In this document: one piece after another, positions 64-9,741 of the stretch
Numbering within the stretch: the stretch's first letter is position 1
Layout of the letters: each line of letters opens with the position of its first letter
Assembly: GCA_965231815.1 (NCBI GenBank)
Contig: OZ246890.1
Location: forward strand, 1,799,469 to 1,863,468
Direction of reading: 5' to 3'
Length of the DNA stretch: 64,000 nucleotides
Source of the DNA: Acidimicrobiia bacterium
GTDB taxonomy: Bacteria > Actinomycetota > Acidimicrobiia > Spongiisociales > Spongiisociaceae
Notes under the pieces: generated by a model
The model's database searches: none
What the model was told of the DNA's origin: nothing
The model's input: only the letters and a program-made list of their open reading frames with translations
Translations under genes and position numbers: made by a program

Positions 64-1110
64 TCAGGCTTCGGCGACCGCCGCGGCGATGCGGTCCCCG
101 AGTTGCTCGGTAGTGGCGCCCATGTCCGGCCCGCCCATCGCCTTGATCGTGGGTAGGACGTTAGCCACCCCCTGCTCCACAATGGCTGCCGAGTCAGGCT
201 CACCCAGATGGGCCAGGCACATGGCGACCGTCAATACGGCCGCCACCGGGTTGGCCCATCCCCGCCCGGCGATGTCCGGCGCCGAACCGTGGACCGGTTC
301 GAATAGAGACGGGAACCGGCCGTCGGGGTTCAGGTTCCCGCTGGCAGCGAGACCCATACCTCCCTGGATGGCAGCGCCGAGGTCGGTGACGATATCTCCG
401 AAAAGGTTGTCGGTAACCACCACATCGAACCGTTCCGGCGAGGTAACCATGTACAGGCACATGGCATCTACATGCACGTAGTCGGTCGCGACCTGCGGGT
501 ATTGTTCGGCTAAGTCGTTGAGGGTCCGGTACCAGAGGTCCCCGGCGTAGGTGAGGACGTTTGTCTTGTGACAGAGTGTCAGGTGCCCTCGTCGTGCGGC
601 GGCCTGCTCGAATGCGAACCGGGTGACCCTTTCCACTCCGAGGCGGGTGTTGATCGACTCCTGCAGCGCAACCTCGTGGGGAGTACCCTTGCGGATGGTT
701 CCGCCCGAACCGGTGTAGGCCCCTTCGGTGTTCTCGCGGGCGATCAACATGTCACAATGCTCCGGTAGGAGTCCGGCGATGGGAGTGGGGACACCGGGTA
801 TCAGCTTTACCGGCCGCAGGTTCACGTAGAGGTCGAAGTCGAACCTGAGTTTAAGGAGCAGGCCGCGCTCCAAGATTCCCGGCGGAACATCAGGTGTGCC
901 GACGGCGCCCAGCAGGATGGCGTCGTGTTCAGCCAACTCGGCCTGGACAGCGGGTGGGAGCACCTCACCGGTCCGTAGATAACGAGTGCCACCCAGATCG
1001 TAATGGTTGGTCTCGACCGTGAATCCACCCCGGTCGGCGGCCGCCGCCAGGGCTTTCAGACCCTGGTCGGTGACCTCAGGGCCGATTCCGTCACCGCCGA
1101 TCACCGCCAT
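64..1110 (-). CDS. leuB: 3-isopropylmalate dehydrogenase
   Basis: N-terminal [12 protein letters not shown] motif and typical LeuB body; start placed at Met before AVIGG, ORF extends to 1140. Confidence 0.9.
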
Positions 1111-1123
1111 GCGGTAGCGCCGA

Positions 1124-2647
1124 TCAGCCATTGACAGCACTTACGGCGCGGTTGAGGGCTTCGACGAAAGCGTGACCAGAACCTTCGACCACGTCGGTGG
1201 ACACCCCCCGTCCGCTATGGGTGGATCCGCCAACCTGTACTACCACGTTTACCTCCGCCATGGCGTCGGCGCCGGCCGTTACCGGAACCACACGATAGTC
1301 CAGCAGGCTGACGTCAAGGCCGAAAGCCTGCTTGAGAGCGTCAAAAGTGGCGTCAACCATTCCGCCGCCGGTTCCGGTGAACTCCTCGGTCTTGTGGCTA
1401 TCGCCGCTCTCGATAGTGACCGTCGAGGTGGGCGTGGTGTGGCTTCCCCCGCTCACGCTTATGGAAACCATCCGTACCGAGCCATCGGCTTGTGCATACC
1501 CCTGGCTGATGATCGCTCGCAGTTCTCGTTCGTTTATCTCGATCTTCCGGTCGGCCACGTTCTTGAATCGCCGGAAGGCTGCCGCGAACTCCTCGTCCTC
1601 CAACACGATGCCCAGCTTGGAGAGCGCATCTGCGAACCCGGCCCGCCCGGAGTGTTTCCCCAGGACGATCTGGCTGGTTGCTCCGACCGAGATGGGATCG
1701 ATGATTTCGTATGTTTCCCGATCCCGCAGCACCCCGTGCTGATGGATGCCCGACTCGTGGGCGAAGGCGTTCCGACCGACCACCGCCTTATTGAATTGAA
1801 CCGGATAGCCCGTTAGGCGGGATACCAGCCTGCTGGTAGGGACGATCTCTTCCGTGTTGGCGTCGACATCAACCCCGAAGTGGTCCCTCCGGGTTCGGAC
1901 GGCCATGATTATCTCCTCGGTGGAGGTGTTGCCCGCTCGCTCTCCTATACCGTTGATGGCGCCTTCGATCTGGCGGGCGCCCGCGTGGATCGCGGAGAGG
2001 GAGTTGGCGACGGCCAGACCAAGGTCGTTATGGCAATGGGTGGAGACGATAACGTCATCCCTACCCCCTAAAACCTCGTCGTATACCCGGCGTAGCAACT
2101 CCACGTAGTCCTCAGGTGTGGCGAACCCGACAGTGTCTGGGATGTTGATGGTGGTGGCGCCCTCCCGTACCGCGGCATGGCAGCACGCGATCATGAAGTC
2201 AGGGTCGGATCGGGTGGCGTCCTGAGGTGAGAACTCCACGTCGTGGGTGTAGCCGCGAGCTCGACGGACTGACTCGATGATCGAGTTCATAACCTCTCGG
2301 GGGGTCATCCGCAGCATCCGTTCCATGTGGATGGGAGAGGTGCTCTGAAAGACATGGATCCTGTGCCGCTCCGCATGACGCACCGCGTCGTAGGCGCGGT
2401 CGATGTCGTCGGGGTGGCACCGGGCCAGGGAAGCGATTACCGGACCCTTCACCTTTTTCGCGATCTGGGAAACACCGTAGAAGTCACCGTCGGATGCGGC
2501 GGCGAAACCGGCTTCGATGATATCTACTCGGAGCTTGGCCAACTGACGGGCGATGACGAGTTTCTCATCCGGGGTCAGCGCGATTCCCGGCGCTTGTTCG
2601 CCATCGCGAAGGGTGGTGTCGAAGATGATCAGCTTGTCTTGTGGCAT
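1124..2647 (-). CDS. leuA: 2-isopropylmalate synthase / citramalate synthase family (short form)
   Basis: [11 protein letters not shown] and [13 protein letters not shown] motifs; start taken at [15 protein letters not shown] extends to 2710; LeuA versus CimA not resolved. Confidence 0.85.
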
Positions 2648-2770
2648 GGGACTGCTCCGGTCTGCGTGTGGTCTGGAAGTCGGGCGGGATGGGGGAGGGT
2701 ACGCCTCCACAGCCCCTAACGGAGGCCGTGGAGGCCTGTTAGTGCCAGCAACTCGCGCAGAATCGGTCGA

Positions 2771-2886
2771 GGAGGGTGCTGAGAAACCCCGTACAAAGGG
2801 GTTCGCCGGCTAATCAAAGCACCCTGACCAGGTAGTTTCACCATACAGCCAACCCCGCTGGATTCGTTTTTCAGCATTCTCCTAGC
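2771..2886 (+). repeat. Interspersed repeat family A copy A1 (diverged, hybrid core)
   Basis: GGAGGGTGCTGAGAAACCCCGTACAAAGGGGTTC ... GTTTTTCAGCATTCTCCTAG with imperfect terminal inverted repeats; intergenic between ilvC and leuA. Confidence 0.7.
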
Positions 2887-2933
2887 AGAGGCGGAGAACC
2901 TGTGCCCTACCGCAGGCTTGGTGGAAGAAACCA

Positions 2934-3944
2934 TTAGCCGGGCGCCTTCGGAGTGAGGAACGGCATCAAGTCACGGAGCCGGGCGCCGACCTGCTCGATC
3001 TCATGGCTTCGTTCCCGTGCTCTGGTGTCGAGAAGCCGCGGAGCGCCTGCGCGGGCCTCGGTCATCCAGTTGCGAGCGAAAGTTCCGGACCGGATATCCT
3101 CCAGAACGTCCTTCATGACCTTGCGCGTCTCATCGGTAATGATACGGGGACCGGTGGAATAGTCTCCCCATTCGGCGGTGTCGGACACCGAATAGCGCAT
3201 CCACGTCAAGCCGCCCTCGTAGAGGAGGTCAACGATCAACTTCAACTCGTGAAGGGTCTCGAAGTAGGCGGACTCGGGTTGGTACCCGCCCTCGACCAGC
3301 GTCTCGTAAGACGCTTTGATCAACTCGGACAGACCACCGCACAGGATGACCTGCTCCCCGAACAGGTCGGTTTCGGTTTCTTCTTTGAAGGTGGTCTCCA
3401 GCACTCCGGCTCTGGCGCCGCCTATCGCCCATGCGTAGGAGAGGCCGAGTTCATGGCAGGCGCCGGATGAGTCTTGATGCACGGCTAGCAGGCACGGTAC
3501 GCCGGAACCTTCCGTGTAGGTGCGGCGCACTAGGTGTCCCGGACCTTTCGGGGCGACCATCAGAACGTCGAGATCTTTGTCGGGGCTGATCTCACCGAAG
3601 TGGATGTTGAACCCGTGGGCAAACATCAGGGCGTCGCCGTTTTGGAGGTGGGGGGCGATCTCCGCGTGGTATAGGTCGGCGGCGTGCTGGTCAGGTACCA
3701 GGACCATGACTACGTTCGCCCATTCGGAAACCTCCGCTACCGAGGCGACCGCGAGACCTTCGCCCTCGGCTTCCAACCGTCGCCGGGACGTCTCTCTGAG
3801 GCCGACCTTGACCTCCACGCCGGACTCCCGGAGGTTGAGAGCATGCGCATGGCCTTGGCTTCCGTACCCGATTACGGCCACCCGGCGGCTTGATATTACG
3901 GCCGGATCCGCATCGTGGTCGTAGTAGATGGAAGCCATGCTCAC
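2934..3944 (-). CDS. ilvC: Ketol-acid reductoisomerase
   Basis: [17 protein letters not shown] Rossmann motif and IlvC body. Confidence 0.9.
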
Positions 3945-3996
3945 CTTTCCCTGGTAGTCGAGCGAATACGGACTATGGAAACCGACTCGGCGGGCG

Positions 3997-4500
3997 TCAT
4001 CCCACCGCTTTCAGTTTCCGGACTTTGGGTTCACGGCGGATCCCGATACGTCCTGACTTGACCAGTTCCATGATGCCGAACGGGCGTACCAGATCCAGGA
4101 AGTCGTTGAGTTTGGAGGGTTTGCCCGCCATCAGCAGCGTGATCGAGTTGACGGCCACATCGACCGGAGTGGCGTTGAAGATCGAGGCGAGATCTATCAC
4201 TTCCCCGCGGCGGCCGGGAGTGGCGTTGATCTTGACCAGCATGATCTCGCGCTCGATTGAGGTGGCGGGATCGAGTTCGGTTATCTTCACCACGTTGACC
4301 AGTTTGTGGAGTTGTTTCTTGACCTGTTCGAGTTCCGCGGCCATGACTACGATGGTCATCGTCGATAGGCCGGCATCAGCGGTCGGGCCGACTGCCAGGG
4401 AATGGATATTGAAACCCCTCCGTGCCAGCAGCGACGCGACCCGGGCGAGGACGCCGGGTTTATCCTCCACCAGCACGCTCAGCACCCGATGATCCCTCAT
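3997..4500 (-). CDS. ilvN: Acetolactate synthase small (regulatory) subunit
   Basis: ACT-domain N-terminus [16 protein letters not shown]; position between ilvB and ilvC. Confidence 0.85.
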
Positions 4501-6197
4501 AGGTCTTCAGGTCCCGTTAGCACGACGTCGTTGGATCCTCCGGCGGGCACCATCGGGAATACCATCTCATCGCGATCCACCTCGAACTCCACGACCACCG
4601 ATCGGTCTTCGATCTCGAGCATCCGCTTGATCGTGTCGTCGACATCCTCGGGACGGTCGGCCCGCAGCCCCACGCATCCCATAGCTTCAGCAAGCTTGAC
4701 GTAATCAGGGAGGTGTCTGCCTAGGTCGGAGGATGAGAACCGTTCGTTGTAGAACAGGCGTTGCCATTGTCTGACCATGCCATGGGCGCTGTTGTTGAAT
4801 ACGGCTACCTTGATGGGGATCTTCTCTACCGAGGCGGTGATCAGCTCCTGAACGGTCATCTGGAAACACCCGTCACCGTCCACGGCTATCACCTGTTTAT
4901 CAGGTCTACCGGCCTTGGCGCCGATGGCTGCCGGGACTGCGAAGCCCATAGTGCCCAGACCTCCGGAGTTGATCCAGTGCCGAGGTTTGTCGAATCCCCA
5001 GTACTGCGAAGCCCACATCTGATGCTGGCCGACCCCCGAGACTACGATGGAATCCTTGTCGGCCAGTTCCCGCAGGCGGGTAAGCACGAACTGAGGTTTG
5101 ATCGGACCGTCCGGTTCCTGCTCGAACCGGAGAGGATGCGTGTCCTGCCATTCCCGGATGGTTCGCCACCATTTCCGTAGCCTTGGCTTCGGGGTATCAC
5201 CCCAGCGCTCGCAGAATGCTTCCAGTATGCGGCCCGCATCTCCTACGATCGGTACCTCCGGAGTACGCACCTTGCCTATTTCGGCCGGGTCTACGTCCCC
5301 GTGAATCACCTTGGCGAAAGGGGCGAAGGAGTTCGGATCGCCCGTGACCCGATCGTCGAAACGAACCCCGACCGCCACCAGCACGTCCGACTTTTGTATC
5401 GCTGTCGTTGCCGCGTATAGCCCGTGCATGCCGGGCATCCCGAGCGTATTCGGATGGCTGTCGGGAATGGCGCCTCTTCCCATCAGGGTGGTCACGACGG
5501 GCATATTGGTCATTTCGGCGAAGGCCAGGAGAGCAGCCGACGCGTTGGCCTTGATGATCCCACCCCCCACGTACAGGACGGGTTGCTCAGCGCCCTGGAT
5601 CATCCGGACGGCTTCTGCGATCCGGCGCGGATGCGGGTTGACGGTGGGGCGGTAACCGGGCATGGATACCGGACCGGGATCGCTCCACTGCAGGGAGGCG
5701 TTCAGTATGTCCTTCGGTAGGTCGACCAGGACGGGTCCGGGCCGCCCTGTCGAGGCGACATGAAACGCTTCGGCCAAGACCTGTGGAATCTCGTCGGGAT
5801 CGGAGACGAAGTAGTTGTGTTTGGTGGCCGGCATGGTGATACCGGTGGTGTACGCCTCCTGGAAAGCGTCATTTCCCACTGCGTTGGTCGGAACCTGTCC
5901 GGTGATAGCCACCATAGGAACCGAGTCCATCAGCGCATCGGCGAGTGGAGTCACGAGGTTGGTGGCGCCCGGCCCCGACGTGGCGATCGTCACCCCGACT
6001 TTGCCCGTTGCCCAAGCATATCCCTCCGCCATGTGTCCGGCACCCTGTTCGTGACGGGCCAGGATATGGCGAAAACCGGCCTCCAGCATCGGATCGTAGG
6101 CGGGCAGGATGGCGCCGCCGGGAATACCGAACGCTACCTCGACATCCAGGTATTCCAGAGCCTTGATCAGTGCTCCTGCACCGGTGATTGTGCTCAT
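4497..6197 (-). CDS. ilvB: Acetolactate synthase large subunit (TPP-dependent)
   Basis: 566-aa TPP enzyme with typical ALS N-terminus; 4-bp overlap with ilvN start. Confidence 0.9.
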   Translation of the reverse strand: MSTITGAGALIKALEYLDVEVAFGIPGGAILPAYDPMLEAGFRHILARHEQGAGHMAEGYAWATGKVGVTIATSGPGATNLVTPLADALMDSVPMVAITGQVPTNAVGNDAFQEAYTTGITMPATKHNYFVSDPDEIPQVLAEAFHVASTGRPGPVLVDLPKDILNASLQWSDPGPVSMPGYRPTVNPHPRRIAEAVRMIQGAEQPVLYVGGGIIKANASAALLAFAEMTNMPVVTTLMGRGAIPDSHPNTLGMPGMHGLYAATTAIQKSDVLVAVGVRFDDRVTGDPNSFAPFAKVIHGDVDPAEIGKVRTPEVPIVGDAGRILEAFCERWGDTPKPRLRKWWRTIREWQDTHPLRFEQEPDGPIKPQFVLTRLRELADKDSIVVSGVGQHQMWASQYWGFDKPRHWINSGGLGTMGFAVPAAIGAKAGRPDKQVIAVDGDGCFQMTVQELITASVEKIPIKVAVFNNSAHGMVRQWQRLFYNERFSSSDLGRHLPDYVKLAEAMGCVGLRADRPEDVDDTIKRMLEIEDRSVVVEFEVDRDEMVFPMVPAGGSNDVVLTGPEDL

Positions 6198-6248
6198 GGC
6201 AAGTTCCTTACGTGCTGGTTGCTGTGATCGGGACCTGGTTCGTCCTAG

Positions 6249-6341
6249 AAAAAAGCCCTCCGGTATGGAGGGCTTCTAGCGCACATGCCGCGGAGCGACG
6301 GTGCGCTACATAAGTACTAGAACGTGGCGGCCAACAGTCAT
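6249..6341 (-). promoter_or_regulatory. Candidate ilvB leader-peptide attenuator: 11-codon Val/Leu-rich leader ORF (6306-6341) plus GC hairpin and U6 terminator (6249-6273)
   Basis: On the minus strand, ATG ACT GTT GGC CGC CAC GTT CTA GTA CTT ATG TAG (MTVGRHVLVLM) is followed by GCCCTCC-ATACC-GGAGGGC and TTTTTT, ~50 nt upstream of the ilvB ATG. Confidence 0.45.
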
Positions 6342-6529
6342 GATTGGCGCGATTATGGAGGAAATGAGCCGAAATGTCAACCTGCTCGATTCCGTCAATG
6401 ACCAGCCGGGACGGCCATTCGGTCCGCTGCCGCCCTTAGAACGGGATCCCGACCCTGGGTCGGCTACGGGAATCTGCACAGCTTGGGCCGGTGTAGAACC
6501 ATCGAGCAGGATCGCTTTACGATAAGGCA

Positions 6530-7756
6530 ATGCAAACATGCAGGCGCGAAGACCTGACCCGAGTGGTCGACCTCGCGAGAAAGGTTCTGGCCGATCTGGA
6601 TCCCGACCAGGTTCCCGGCCGCCTGGCCGGAATTGTCGCACAAACCAGACCTGCGCTAGTGATACCGATGCAAAATCGATTGATTAACGAGGTTGACGGT
6701 AACGAGTGGCTTCGCAGGCGGATCGCAGAGGAGTTCGACGGGGGGGTAGATGCGGAAGACCCGCTGGAAAGAGCGGCATATCTGTTTCTCCACCGGCCCG
6801 ATGGTTGGTCGGATGACCTACGAGAGATATCCCAACGTTCACAGCTGGCGGAGCAAGCCACCCGCATCGAAGAGATGGCCAATTGCATCAACGACCTGAA
6901 GACGGAGCTGGAAGATTGGCGGAACCAAGCCAAGCGCAACCGGAAGCTGGCTAACGAGGCGGCTGCCGAGGCTGAGGCCAATCGTCGGGTGGCGGCCGCC
7001 CGGGCCGAAGCTCTCCGGCGTCAGGATGAGGGAAGTATCACGGCGCTGCGACGGGATAATAGGGTTCTCCGGGGAGACCTGGAAGCGTCGAGAACCGAGC
7101 AACTCGCGCTACGAGGTCGTCTGGATGAGGTCCGGGCTGAGCTTCAGCGAGAACGGCGAGCACCGCGATTGATCGATCGTCCGGCGGCGCCCAGTGCATG
7201 GGCGAGTTTGGATCTCGTCGACTCTGCGCGCTTCCTCGACGATATGGTGGAATCGTTTTCACCGGAGTCGTCCTTTAGCGAAACGACCGGGTCTGTTGAA
7301 GAACCGCTCGATCTCCCATCGGGGGTCTCCCCCGATGACCGCTCTGCGATCGAATGGCTGCTGACCATCGAACGTGATTTCGTGCTGCTGGTGGACGGCT
7401 ACAACGTAGGCTATCACCTGGATAACTCACGGTTCAGCTCACCTGATATCCGCCGACGGCTGGAGAACGACATAGCCAGGTTCAAGAACCTCGCGCGGGG
7501 AAGGCCCCGGGTGGTTCTCGTTTATGACTCCGATCAGACCGGTGTGACGACGCGCGATCCCGGGCCGTCAGGTATCGAGATTCGGTTTACACATACCGGC
7601 CATAGCGCCGACGACGAGATCCTGGCGGAGGCTGCGGACCTGGGTACGGCTGCGGTGGTGGTCTCGACCGATCGTCGGGTGCGGGAGGGTGCGGAGGAGT
7701 TCGGTTCTCTCGGGTTATGGAGTGAGTCCATGGCCGAGTGGATCCGCAACTCCTGA
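6530..7756 (+). CDS. NYN/YacP-like PIN-fold nuclease-domain protein with central coiled coil
   Basis: C-terminal LLVDGYNVG ... VVLVYD ... ADDEILAEA ... VVVSTDRRVRE matches the YacP/NYN pattern; Arg/Glu-rich coiled-coil middle. Confidence 0.6.
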   Translation: MQTCRREDLTRVVDLARKVLADLDPDQVPGRLAGIVAQTRPALVIPMQNRLINEVDGNEWLRRRIAEEFDGGVDAEDPLERAAYLFLHRPDGWSDDLREISQRSQLAEQATRIEEMANCINDLKTELEDWRNQAKRNRKLANEAAAEAEANRRVAAARAEALRRQDEGSITALRRDNRVLRGDLEASRTEQLALRGRLDEVRAELQRERRAPRLIDRPAAPSAWASLDLVDSARFLDDMVESFSPESSFSETTGSVEEPLDLPSGVSPDDRSAIEWLLTIERDFVLLVDGYNVGYHLDNSRFSSPDIRRRLENDIARFKNLARGRPRVVLVYDSDQTGVTTRDPGPSGIEIRFTHTGHSADDEILAEAADLGTAAVVVSTDRRVREGAEEFGSLGLWSESMAEWIRNS

Positions 7757-8058: not shown

Positions 8059-9741
8059 TCAGCCGTCTGTCACGCATCCCAAGCTGGCTGATGACACGGT
8101 TCGGACGTACTTGGCGAGGGTTCCTCTCGTAGCCTTCGACGGGGGCGCCGTCCAGGCTGATCGCCTTCCGGCGAGTTCGGCGTCCGGTACGTGGAGGGTG
8201 ATGGTGCGGGCTGTGGCGTCGATCGAGATCCGGTCGCCCTGCTCTACCAGTGCCAGCGGGCCACCTTCCTGAGCTTCGGGGCTCACATGTCCCATGATGA
8301 ATCCATGGGACCCGCCGGAGAACCGGCCATCCGTGATCAGGGCGACGTCTTGGCCCAGTCCGGCGCCCATGATGGCCGAGGTGGGGGTGAGCATCTCCGG
8401 CATTCCCGGACCACCTTTGGGGCCCTCGTAGCGGATCAGGATCACTGAGCCGGGGGTGATCTCGCCCCGCTCGAGTGCTTCCAGCATGTCCTCCTCGCTG
8501 TCGTAGGGCAGGGCGACGCCGCTGAAGGACAGACCTTCCTTGCCGGTGATCTTGGCTACGGCGCCCTCGGGGGCGAGGTTCCCGCGGAGTATCTGGATGT
8601 GCCCTGAATCCTTGATCGGGCTATCCCAATCGGCGACCACCTGCTGACCCTCGGAGAGTGCAGGTAGGTCGGAAAGATTCTCGCGCAAGGTCCGTCCGGT
8701 GACGGTCATGCAGTCACCGTCAATGGCGCCCCGCTCCAGGAGCATGCGGAGCACCGCAGGCGTACCTCCCACCGTGTGAAGATCGGCCATTACATACTTC
8801 CCGGAGGGCTTGAGGTCGGCCAGGTAGGGAGTGCGGTCGCTGACAGCTTGGAAGTCCTCGATGTGTAGCTCCACACCGGCGGAGTGCGCCATGGCAATCA
8901 GGTGCAGGACCGCATTGGTGGAGCCGCCTAGGACCATGGTGACCGTCATGGCGTTCTCGAAAGCGGCTCGGGTCATGATGTCGCTCGGCTTGATGTCCTC
9001 CTCCATTAGCCGCCGCACCGCCGCTCCGGCCGCCAGACATTCGGCTGCCTTGCCGTCATCGAGCGCAGGCGTGGAGGAACTGTAGGGAAGGGACATGCCC
9101 AGTGTCTCGATCGCTACCGCCATCGTGTTGGCGGTGTACATCCCTCCGCAAGCGCCGGCCCCCGGGCACGCATTGCGGACGATATCGAGGCGGTCCGCCT
9201 CGTCTAGTCGTCCGGCGATGTATTCACCGTACGACTGGAAGGCCGAAACTATGTCGATCGGATTACCGTGACGGTCGGTTCCGGGCTGAATGGTTCCACC
9301 GTAGATCATCACCGACGGCCGGTTCAATCGGGACATCGCCATCACCGCTCCGGGCATGTTCTTGTCACAGCCCGGAATGGAGATGTTGGCGTCATACCAC
9401 TGGGCGCTCATTACCGTCTCGATCGAATCCGCGATCAGATCCCGTGACTGGAGCGAGTAGGACATGCCTTCGGTCCCCATCGACATGCCATCGGAGACCC
9501 CGATGGTATTGAAGCGCATGCCTACCAGCCCGGCCCGGGTAACCCCTTCCTTGACCAGGGAAGCCAGATGGTCGAGGTGCATGTTGCAGCTGTTCCCCTC
9601 GTACCACATGGAAGCGATTCCCACCTGGGCTTTGGACATGTCCTCCGTGGTGAGGCCGGATGCGTAAAGCATCGCTTGGGATCCGCCCTGCGATCTTTCC
9701 TGAGTTATACGTCTGCTGATGAGGTTGATGGGTTGTGGCAT
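8059..9741 (-). CDS. ilvD: Dihydroxy-acid dehydratase
   Basis: IlvD/EDD family N-terminus and full-length body. Confidence 0.9.

Follow-up and report, generated by a model that had tools for sequence, protein, structure and literature searches.

A probable ribosome-mediated leader-peptide attenuator, with no anti-terminator found, upstream of the ilvBNC-leuAB operon of an Acidimicrobiia bacterium

The 64,000-nucleotide stretch of Acidimicrobiia bacterium DNA analyzed here (contig OZ246890.1, positions 1,799,469 to 1,863,468; the whole stretch is called the window) carries five consecutive genes on its minus strand, each assigned from Pfam domains and open reading frames (ORFs). These are ilvB, with thiamine pyrophosphate enzyme domains (4497-6197); ilvN, the acetohydroxyacid synthase small subunit (3997-4500); ilvC, the ketol-acid reductoisomerase (2934-3944); a leuA-like gene for a LeuA-type synthase (1124-2710); and leuB (64-1140). 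A leader element immediately upstream of ilvB serves this ilvBNC-leuAB operon, which belongs to a bacterium related to the sponge-associated Candidatus (Ca.) Spongiisociaceae; the unit under its control is taken to extend over 64..6197 (minus strand, ilvB-ilvN-ilvC-leuA-like-leuB). The structural and comparative data make it likely that the element is a leader-peptide attenuator of the actinobacterial IlvL type, mediated by the ribosome and responding to branched-chain amino acids.

Read along the minus strand of the window, the element consists of a promoter, a leader ORF, a hairpin (P1), a terminator hairpin (T) with a U6 run, and then ilvB. The leader ORF (6306..6341) begins with ATG at 6341-6339, continues as ACT GTT GGC CGC CAC GTT CTA GTA CTT ATG, and ends with TAG at 6308-6306, encoding MTVGRHVLVLM. 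The four codons GUU CUA GUA CUU (Val-Leu-Val-Leu, 6312..6323) are the candidate regulatory codons, a role suggested by conservation of Ile, Leu or Val (I/L/V) at these positions and by the use of minor codons. After the stop codon, the sequence up to 6277 reads CGCAC CGTCGCTCCGCGGCAT GTGCGCTA. This region folds as P1 (6277..6308), which has a lower stem UAGCGCAC/GUGCGCUA that includes the stop codon and an upper stem GUCGC/GCGGC. The next segment, 6276-6249, reads GAAGCCCTCC ATACC GGAGGGCTTTTTT and forms the putative intrinsic terminator T, with no nucleotide between it and P1. The T core is a perfect 7-bp helix, GCCCTCC (6273-6267) with GGAGGGC (6261-6255), which extends to a 10-bp hairpin, GAAGCCCUCC/GGAGGGCUUU, with an AUACC loop (6276-6252). 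The U6 run occupies 6254-6249. From there 51 nt lead to the ilvB ATG at 6197, and a Shine-Dalgarno sequence, AAGGAA (6204..6209), lies within them, 6 nt 5' of the ATG.

A first-pass annotation of this DNA had described the ORF, the perfect hairpin, the U6 run and a distance of about 50 nt to the ilvB ATG, all of which agree with the sequence. It had also counted five Val/Leu among the last seven codons. The enrichment is real; the count is four of the last five sense codons, or five of the last nine. To that description can be added the promoter, the second hairpin P1, and a leader frame that stays open upstream to 6641. Read as a gene, the resulting 111-aa ORF (6306-6641, minus strand) is an artefact: its frame crosses the promoter and runs antisense to a divergent gene.

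Folding of 6345-6198 gives -54.6 kcal/mol (z = -3.55), a value equalled by none of 200 shuffled sequences, and consists of two adjoining hairpins, P1 with the stop codon included and then T. Both halves of the element are singular in the 64-kb window. Counting both strands, there is exactly one perfect GC-rich hairpin with a stem of 7 bp or more and a T-run behind it, namely T itself (6275-6253), and exactly one ATG ORF of the form M-x(2-14)-[ILV]4-x-stop, which adjoins T. The hairpin count comes from a custom scan, used instead of a standard terminator scan that missed T by extending the stem into the U-run and then counting too few T. Canonical intrinsic terminators seem rare in this genome, and T thus stands out as regulatory. 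Chance co-occurrence of a short ORF and a hairpin is effectively excluded: short ORFs are common in any sequence, yet here ORF form and hairpin each occur once in the window, adjoin one another, are kept in 75 genomes, and have helices that covary.

The architecture is conserved well beyond this genome. Eighty loci were retrieved by IlvB, every one from Acidimicrobiia or from a bin that carries a wrong label; they reach as far as Ca. Actinomarina, whose IlvB is 60% identical. The nearest IlvB sequences, with 92-81% identity, come from sponge-associated metagenome-assembled genomes labelled Ca. Spongiisociaceae or Acidimicrobiia. Seventy-eight loci are informative, with L023 left out for having no upstream DNA and L034 because its leader is replaced by N (in this locus, CP070681.1, about 100 nt at the expected leader site are N, and the sequence resumes at TTTTTTGTAGGCGGAGGAACCCATG). 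The element lies upstream of ilvB in 75 of these 78 loci, across IlvB identities of 92-60% and an element GC content of 39-67%. Its order is constant: a sigma-70-type promoter; an ATG ORF of 8-16 codons with four I/L/V codons, one further codon and the stop; P1; a gap of 0-7 nt; a CCUCC/GGAGG hairpin with 4-9 U; and ilvB 20-100 nt on. A covariance model built from 12 homologues finds one full-length match per locus in the 75 loci, each just upstream of ilvB, so that the association with ilvB is exclusive. In the window the model matches 6248-6323 on the minus strand (40 bits, E = 4e-9), and its search of the 64 kb returned no second copy of the leader element.

The covariance model found no match in the three remaining loci, L064, L065 and L074. 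At about 2850-3000 in L064, 890-1040 in L065 and 2850-3000 in L074, ilvB-like genes (~64% identity) stand without the leader. They have in common another conserved upstream motif, GGCAUAGCAUCCAAUAAGUUGA, located after a hairpin and T-run and without an Rfam match at E <= 1. The ilvB-like gene of these loci may be a paralogue with a leader of its own.

As an independent check, public metagenomes were scanned for the 14-base core GTACTTNNNTAGCGCAC. The 120 matches are mostly chance occurrences, and nine contain the full element. In eight of the nine contigs the leader stop is followed, 86-180 nt on, by the start of an IlvB homologue; the ninth contig runs out 142 nt past the stop. No IlvB was found near the other 111 core matches. 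Among the contigs recovered in several metagenomes is an unrelated conserved element with the same 14-base core, in which (GTAA)n repeats are followed by GTGTACTTNTATAGCGCACAAAATCATAGTCACAATGCGCTGTGATTTCTAAAAAA, again with no IlvB nearby (L084, L093, L099, L115, L126, L149, L172, L185, L186, L191, L193 and L199).

The leader promoter consists of a -35 hexamer, TTGACA (6375..6380), and a -10 hexamer, CATAAT (6352..6357), separated by a 17-nt spacer. This pair (6380-6352) matches 11 of 12 positions and is the sole promoter-like site found in 2 kb by the promoter scan. The end of the -10 hexamer lies 10 nt 5' of the leader ATG, which predicts a transcription start at about 6345-6344 and a 5' untranslated region of about 3-4 nt without a Shine-Dalgarno sequence. 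Consistent with this placement, a TTGACA-like/CATAMT pair is kept in 55 distinct upstream regions, scoring at least 9/12 in 38 of them, and in most of the 55 regions 7-13 nt (median 10) separate the -10 hexamer from the ATG. A Shine-Dalgarno-like 4-mer precedes the leader ATG in a single one of the 55 regions. The proximity of the -10 hexamer to the ATG and the near absence of such 4-mers suggest that leader translation is leaderless or nearly so.

The pattern of substitution in the ORF is that of a translated sequence. In all 56 distinct leaders, positions -5 to -2 relative to the stop are I, L or V, with synonymous variation; position -1 is never I/L/V, and positions upstream of -5 are free. 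Leu at -4 is spelled CUC, CUA, CUG, UUA or CUU, and position -5 switches among AUC, AUU, GUC, GUA and GUG. This retention of I/L/V through synonymous changes indicates that the leader ORF is a coding feature. The homologous peptides include MTSSILVLP, MQAINTVLVLT, MRNIHLLLVLE and MKKSVNLISLLVLVLM. Nearly all elements (75/76) start with ATG, the exception being GTG in L041, and the stop is TAG in 53 of the 56 distinct leaders. Codon choice is also skewed, with GUA favoured at -3 (36/43 Val) and CUU at -2 (38/47 Leu). In the window genes, GUU and GUA make up 16% and 15.6% of Val codons, and CUA and CUU 8% and 10% of Leu codons, so that all four sensed codons are minor codons. Enterobacterial leaders likewise use minor codons at their sensed positions.

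Both helices vary in a compensatory manner. Each of the 11 modelled pairs of P1 varies, and in 10 both partners change; the raw sequences themselves show the compensatory variants clearly: GCGCAC/GUGCGC, GCGCUCA/UGAGCGC, GACACACACG/CGUGUGUGUC and GGCGCAUACG/CGUAUGCGCC. In T, 97% of cells are paired; the CCUCC/GGAGG core is nearly invariant, and three C-G pairs never vary. A structure alignment of 68 distinct sequences has 97.9% of cells paired and 15 of 19 pairs changed on both sides; this alignment was fitted to the covariance model, so its pairing percentages lean towards the structure. In control comparisons, none of 500 shuffles reached the observed values, and slid partner columns pair at 40-58%. 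A MAFFT alignment of all 58 sequences passed to RNAalifold returned no structure, the stems being misaligned, and was replaced by a hand-specified structure on a 12-sequence seed followed by covariance-model realignment.

The spacing of these parts is as constrained as their sequence. In nearly all homologues the first base of P1 is the A or the G of the stop codon, and the last I/L/V codon lies 6 nt from the stop in 71 of 74 elements. L051 and L057 have four codons after the I/L/V run; in both, the base of P1 has moved into the ORF and is again 7-9 nt from the run. Because P1 shifts into the ORF in these two leaders, its position appears to track the sensed codons and not the stop codon. Distances to P1 were measured without flanking sequence, as flanks brought in spurious outer pairs. 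P1 and T are never more than 7 nt apart, and in 31 of 74 elements they directly abut. P1 is the more stable hairpin in 71 of 74 elements (medians -20.3 kcal/mol for P1 and -15.2 kcal/mol for T). In a small clade, L049 and L053, the 3' end of P1 contains a second CCCUCC copy, through which P1 and T partially overlap; an opened P1 would there allow an alternative terminator with a larger loop.

These constraints bear on whether stalling of a ribosome is needed at all. A protein or small molecule could act on P1 (GCGCAC/GUGCGC) or on the CCUCC/GGAGG stem, or T could be a constitutive partial terminator, in which case the small ORF would mainly affect 5'-end stability or polymerase pausing. Conservation of stem sequence beyond the needs of pairing, as in the three invariant C-G pairs of T, would fit such control, as would the failure to find an anti-terminator (below) and the codon substitutions that, as relayed in a later paper, had no effect in S. 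coelicolor (PMC1262725). P1 and T, however, are simple hairpins whose loops vary. An RNA that binds a protein or ligand would not be expected to show codon-level conservation of four I/L/V positions, including changes from CUN to UUA, or exclusion of I/L/V from the next codon, and neither would it be expected to keep a distance to P1 that stays fixed even where the stop codon moves. Control without ribosome stalling is therefore considered unlikely, and attenuation by a ribosome on the leader ORF remains the better account of these features.

If a ribosome is responsible, the textbook route would be the four-segment attenuator of the trp, leu and ilvGMEDA type, in which a stalled ribosome frees a segment that pairs with the 5' arm of T. 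The layout of leader ORF and terminator fits this scheme, and the published model of Corynebacterium ilvB-II includes an anti-terminator in which the P1 loop pairs with the P2 3' shoulder (PMC10272879). To look for the equivalent here, 58-60 distinct leaders were folded in five states, one without a ribosome and four in which a 28-nt mask represented a ribosome whose A site held Leu1, Val, Leu2 or the stop codon. Neither the window nor the 58-60 homologues yielded an anti-terminator fold; T is present in the minimum-free-energy (MFE) structure in every ribosome state. The median of its mean pair probability is 0.98 in the free, A-site-Leu2 and A-site-stop states, and blocking T costs about 10 kcal/mol. 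The sole outlier is L049, where the second CCCUCC copy becomes the 5' arm and T forms in an alternative register. T has only pyrimidines in its 5' arm and only purines in its 3' arm, so that neither can pair with the arms of P1; furthermore, on a leaderless ORF of 9-11 codons a stalled ribosome covers all RNA 5' of P1, leaving nothing to serve as segment 2. On this modelling, the classical 2:3 anti-terminator is absent, and a four-segment attenuator is very improbable.

The first-pass annotation had called the arrangement classical and had proposed folding for an anti-terminator as a check, which is negative in the window and in 60 homologues. It had further held that the attenuator interpretation would fall if a missing anti-terminator coincided with relatives that lack the leader ORF and keep the same regulation. 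The leader ORF is kept in the relatives. The interpretation thus stands, with a mechanism that does not appear to be of the four-segment kind. Its central claim, a leader peptide and terminator attenuating ilvBNC, gains support from the 75 of 78 loci, the nine metagenome contigs, the coding-type conservation and the similarity to Streptomyces IlvL.

Other ways of linking the leader codons to T were considered and rejected. One possibility would be a programmed +1 or -1 frameshift at a hungry CUU; the shifted frames are open in 49/60 and 39/60 leaders, as compared to 57/60 for a zero-frame control, and close early in AT-rich homologues. A second would be an anti-Shine-Dalgarno interaction of the stalled ribosome with the GGAGG arm. 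The geometry is implausible, and the A of the 3' arm varies (UA in 56, UG in 10), a pattern that fits drift via a G-U intermediate better than selection on GGAGG. A third would be a long-range helix joining the leader codons to sequence 3' of the U-tract. In the window, CGUUCUAG (6324-6317) can pair with a post-terminator box, CUAGGACG (6241..6248, minus strand; 6248-6241 in reading order), at -8.7 kcal/mol as compared to a shuffle mean of -4.7 kcal/mol. In the MFE structure this pairing encloses P1 and T in a three-way junction, possible only in readthrough transcripts. The box is clade-specific, with similar pairing in the closest relatives L001-L004 and L011. As a family-wide feature the helix is rejected: cognate duplexes average -3.9 kcal/mol, no better than shuffles (-3.9 kcal/mol) or non-cognate pairs (-4.3 kcal/mol).

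A riboswitch or other ligand-sensing RNA, for example a leader of the guanosine tetraphosphate (ppGpp) type that controls ilvB in some bacteria, is a highly improbable explanation. There is precedent for riboswitch control of ilvB in some lineages (PMC10272879). Against this, the element has a coding signature and no conserved multi-helix junction or loop, and neither the window nor 19+5 related loci gave an Rfam match at threshold. In the window, the search of Rfam 15 gave no family at the gathering threshold; Phe_leader (RF01859) scored 26.9 bits versus 55 and aligned only to T. Among the relatives' leaders, none of 19 loci has a family at the gathering threshold, and L016 and L068 have none at E <= 1.

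How, then, might a stalled ribosome relieve termination at T? In the leader-peptide attenuator favoured here, transcription would start about 3-4 nt 5' of the AUG, and the 11-codon leader would be translated without a Shine-Dalgarno sequence and sense charged Val, Leu and Ile tRNA. By default, transcription would end at T, 51 nt short of ilvB. With the last I/L/V codon hungry and in the A site, the base of P1 would lie at +11/+12 from the first P-site nucleotide, and P1 would stay closed. This is about where the E. coli ribosome stops admitting duplex RNA at the mRNA entrance. A closed P1 would draw T to within 0-7 nt of the stalled ribosome. With P1 and T folded and the polymerase ~8 nt into the U-tract, the unpaired path would be 3 + 8 + (0-7) + 8 = 19-26 nt, which is shorter than the 34 nt of a collided ribosome-polymerase complex, such that T could not close and the polymerase would read through. 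During normal reading, the ribosome would sit two codons further on, at the stop codon, and would open at least 6 bp of P1 or leave. Opening P1 would release about 30 nt and lengthen the path to about 43-50 nt, allowing T to fold and transcription to end. With no ribosome present, both hairpins would fold and T would terminate. P1 might also be a pause hairpin, giving the first ribosome time to load.

Published observations are consistent with parts of this scheme. A ribosome a few nucleotides from the terminator tR2 abolishes termination in vivo, where 10-15 nt of free RNA are needed (PMC4824070). In the collided expressome, 34 nt separate the P site from the active site (bioRxiv 10.1101/2020.03.01.971028), and the collided complex has been described as incompatible with pause and termination hairpins (PMC7858274). 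We nevertheless offer only tentatively, as a possibility with the balance against it, the proposal that P1 is a position-sensitive tether and that the ribosome itself blocks termination with no RNA anti-terminator.

Several points weigh against the attenuator interpretation and its proposed mechanism. The start of transcription, termination at T and the starvation response are all predictions from sequence. Since no anti-terminator is found, readthrough would rest on a steric argument, and a hairpin that shortens a tether has no direct precedent. The distances used, the entrance at +11/+12 and the 34 nt, come from E. coli and may differ here. The longest spacers, or stalls at upstream I/L/V codons, would bring the path near 34 nt, where the steric block would be weak. 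Finally, in the S. coelicolor ilvB leader, replacement of the candidate regulatory codons is reported, in a secondary account, to have left regulation unchanged (Craster 1999, via PMC1262725).

Two neighbouring features complete the context in the window. ilvD lies at 8059-9741, further upstream of the leader, and the divergent 408-aa gene at 6530-7756 (plus strand) has a C-terminal YacP-like NYN (RNase-type) domain in Pfam. Separately, locus L070 carries an S-adenosylmethionine (SAM) riboswitch (RF00162, 84 bits) at 418-525 on its minus strand, about 2.5 kb upstream of ilvB.

The element extends a class of ilvB attenuators known in Corynebacterium and Streptomyces to the Acidimicrobiia, from sponge symbionts to marine Actinomarina; a full-text literature search found no attenuator report for Acidimicrobiia. 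Its existence is not surprising in itself. How termination is relieved in the actinobacterial versions has been unclear since 2005, and the Streptomyces mutational results are paradoxical. Here, more than 60 natural variants keep a strict geometry, with the last sensed codon 7-8 nt from a P1 anchored at the stop codon, P1 0-7 nt from T, and no alternative fold. This gives a concrete, testable alternative to the textbook anti-terminator model and a natural test bed for ribosome-proximity control of termination, together with a signature, ready to be used as a covariance model, of a small translated ORF overlooked by gene callers. If the tether proposal were true, a 6-nt shift in ribosome position would become a 25-30-nt change in spacing, and the same logic might explain leaders of other Actinobacteria that have been described as a leader peptide with a terminator and an unclear mechanism. 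Seliverstov et al. (2005) reported such "candidate leader peptides with terminators" before ilvB in other Actinobacteria, with the mode of regulation unclear (PMC1262725), and the lack of an anti-terminator in this element agrees with their account.

Among known systems, the element resembles in function, and is probably related to, the Streptomyces IlvL-type leaders and Corynebacterium ilvB-II, both compared here by published description. The Streptomyces IlvL leader (MRTRILVLGKRVG; S. lividans and S. coelicolor ilvBHC) is a leaderless short ORF before ilvB that has the same I-L-V-L core, with hairpins and a U-rich tract after it (PMC8079986); the predicted leaderless start of the present element agrees with what is reported for C. 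glutamicum and for Streptomyces IlvL (PMC8079986). It differs in having five more codons after ILVL, whereas here there is one, with the stop codon inside P1. The Corynebacterium ilvB-II and C. glutamicum ilvB leaders also contain an I/L/V-rich upstream ORF and two hairpins, the second a terminator with a U-tract, and ilvB-II occurs once per genome, always upstream of ilvB; an ilvB-II reporter is repressed in rich medium (PMC10272879). There, the upstream ORF has 15-17 codons and extends across most of P1, and the model contains an anti-terminator between the P1 loop and the P2a 3' shoulder, whereas the present ORF stops at the base of P1 and folding revealed no competing pairing. The enterobacterial leaders (ilvBN, ilvGMEDA, leu, trp and his) resemble the element in their peptides rich in cognate codons, their rare codons and a terminator before the first gene, and differ in having a Shine-Dalgarno-led ORF and mutually exclusive 1:2, 2:3 and 3:4 pairings. 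Repression of termination by ribosome proximity, as in the E. coli tR2 series and pyrBI-type coupling, provides a functional parallel to the tether proposal, in that a nearby ribosome keeps a hairpin open (PMC4824070). In those cases proximity is linear, with the stop a few nucleotides from the hairpin or the ORF running through it. Here the linear distance is 25-43 nt, and proximity would instead be created, and then cancelled, by the closing and opening of P1.

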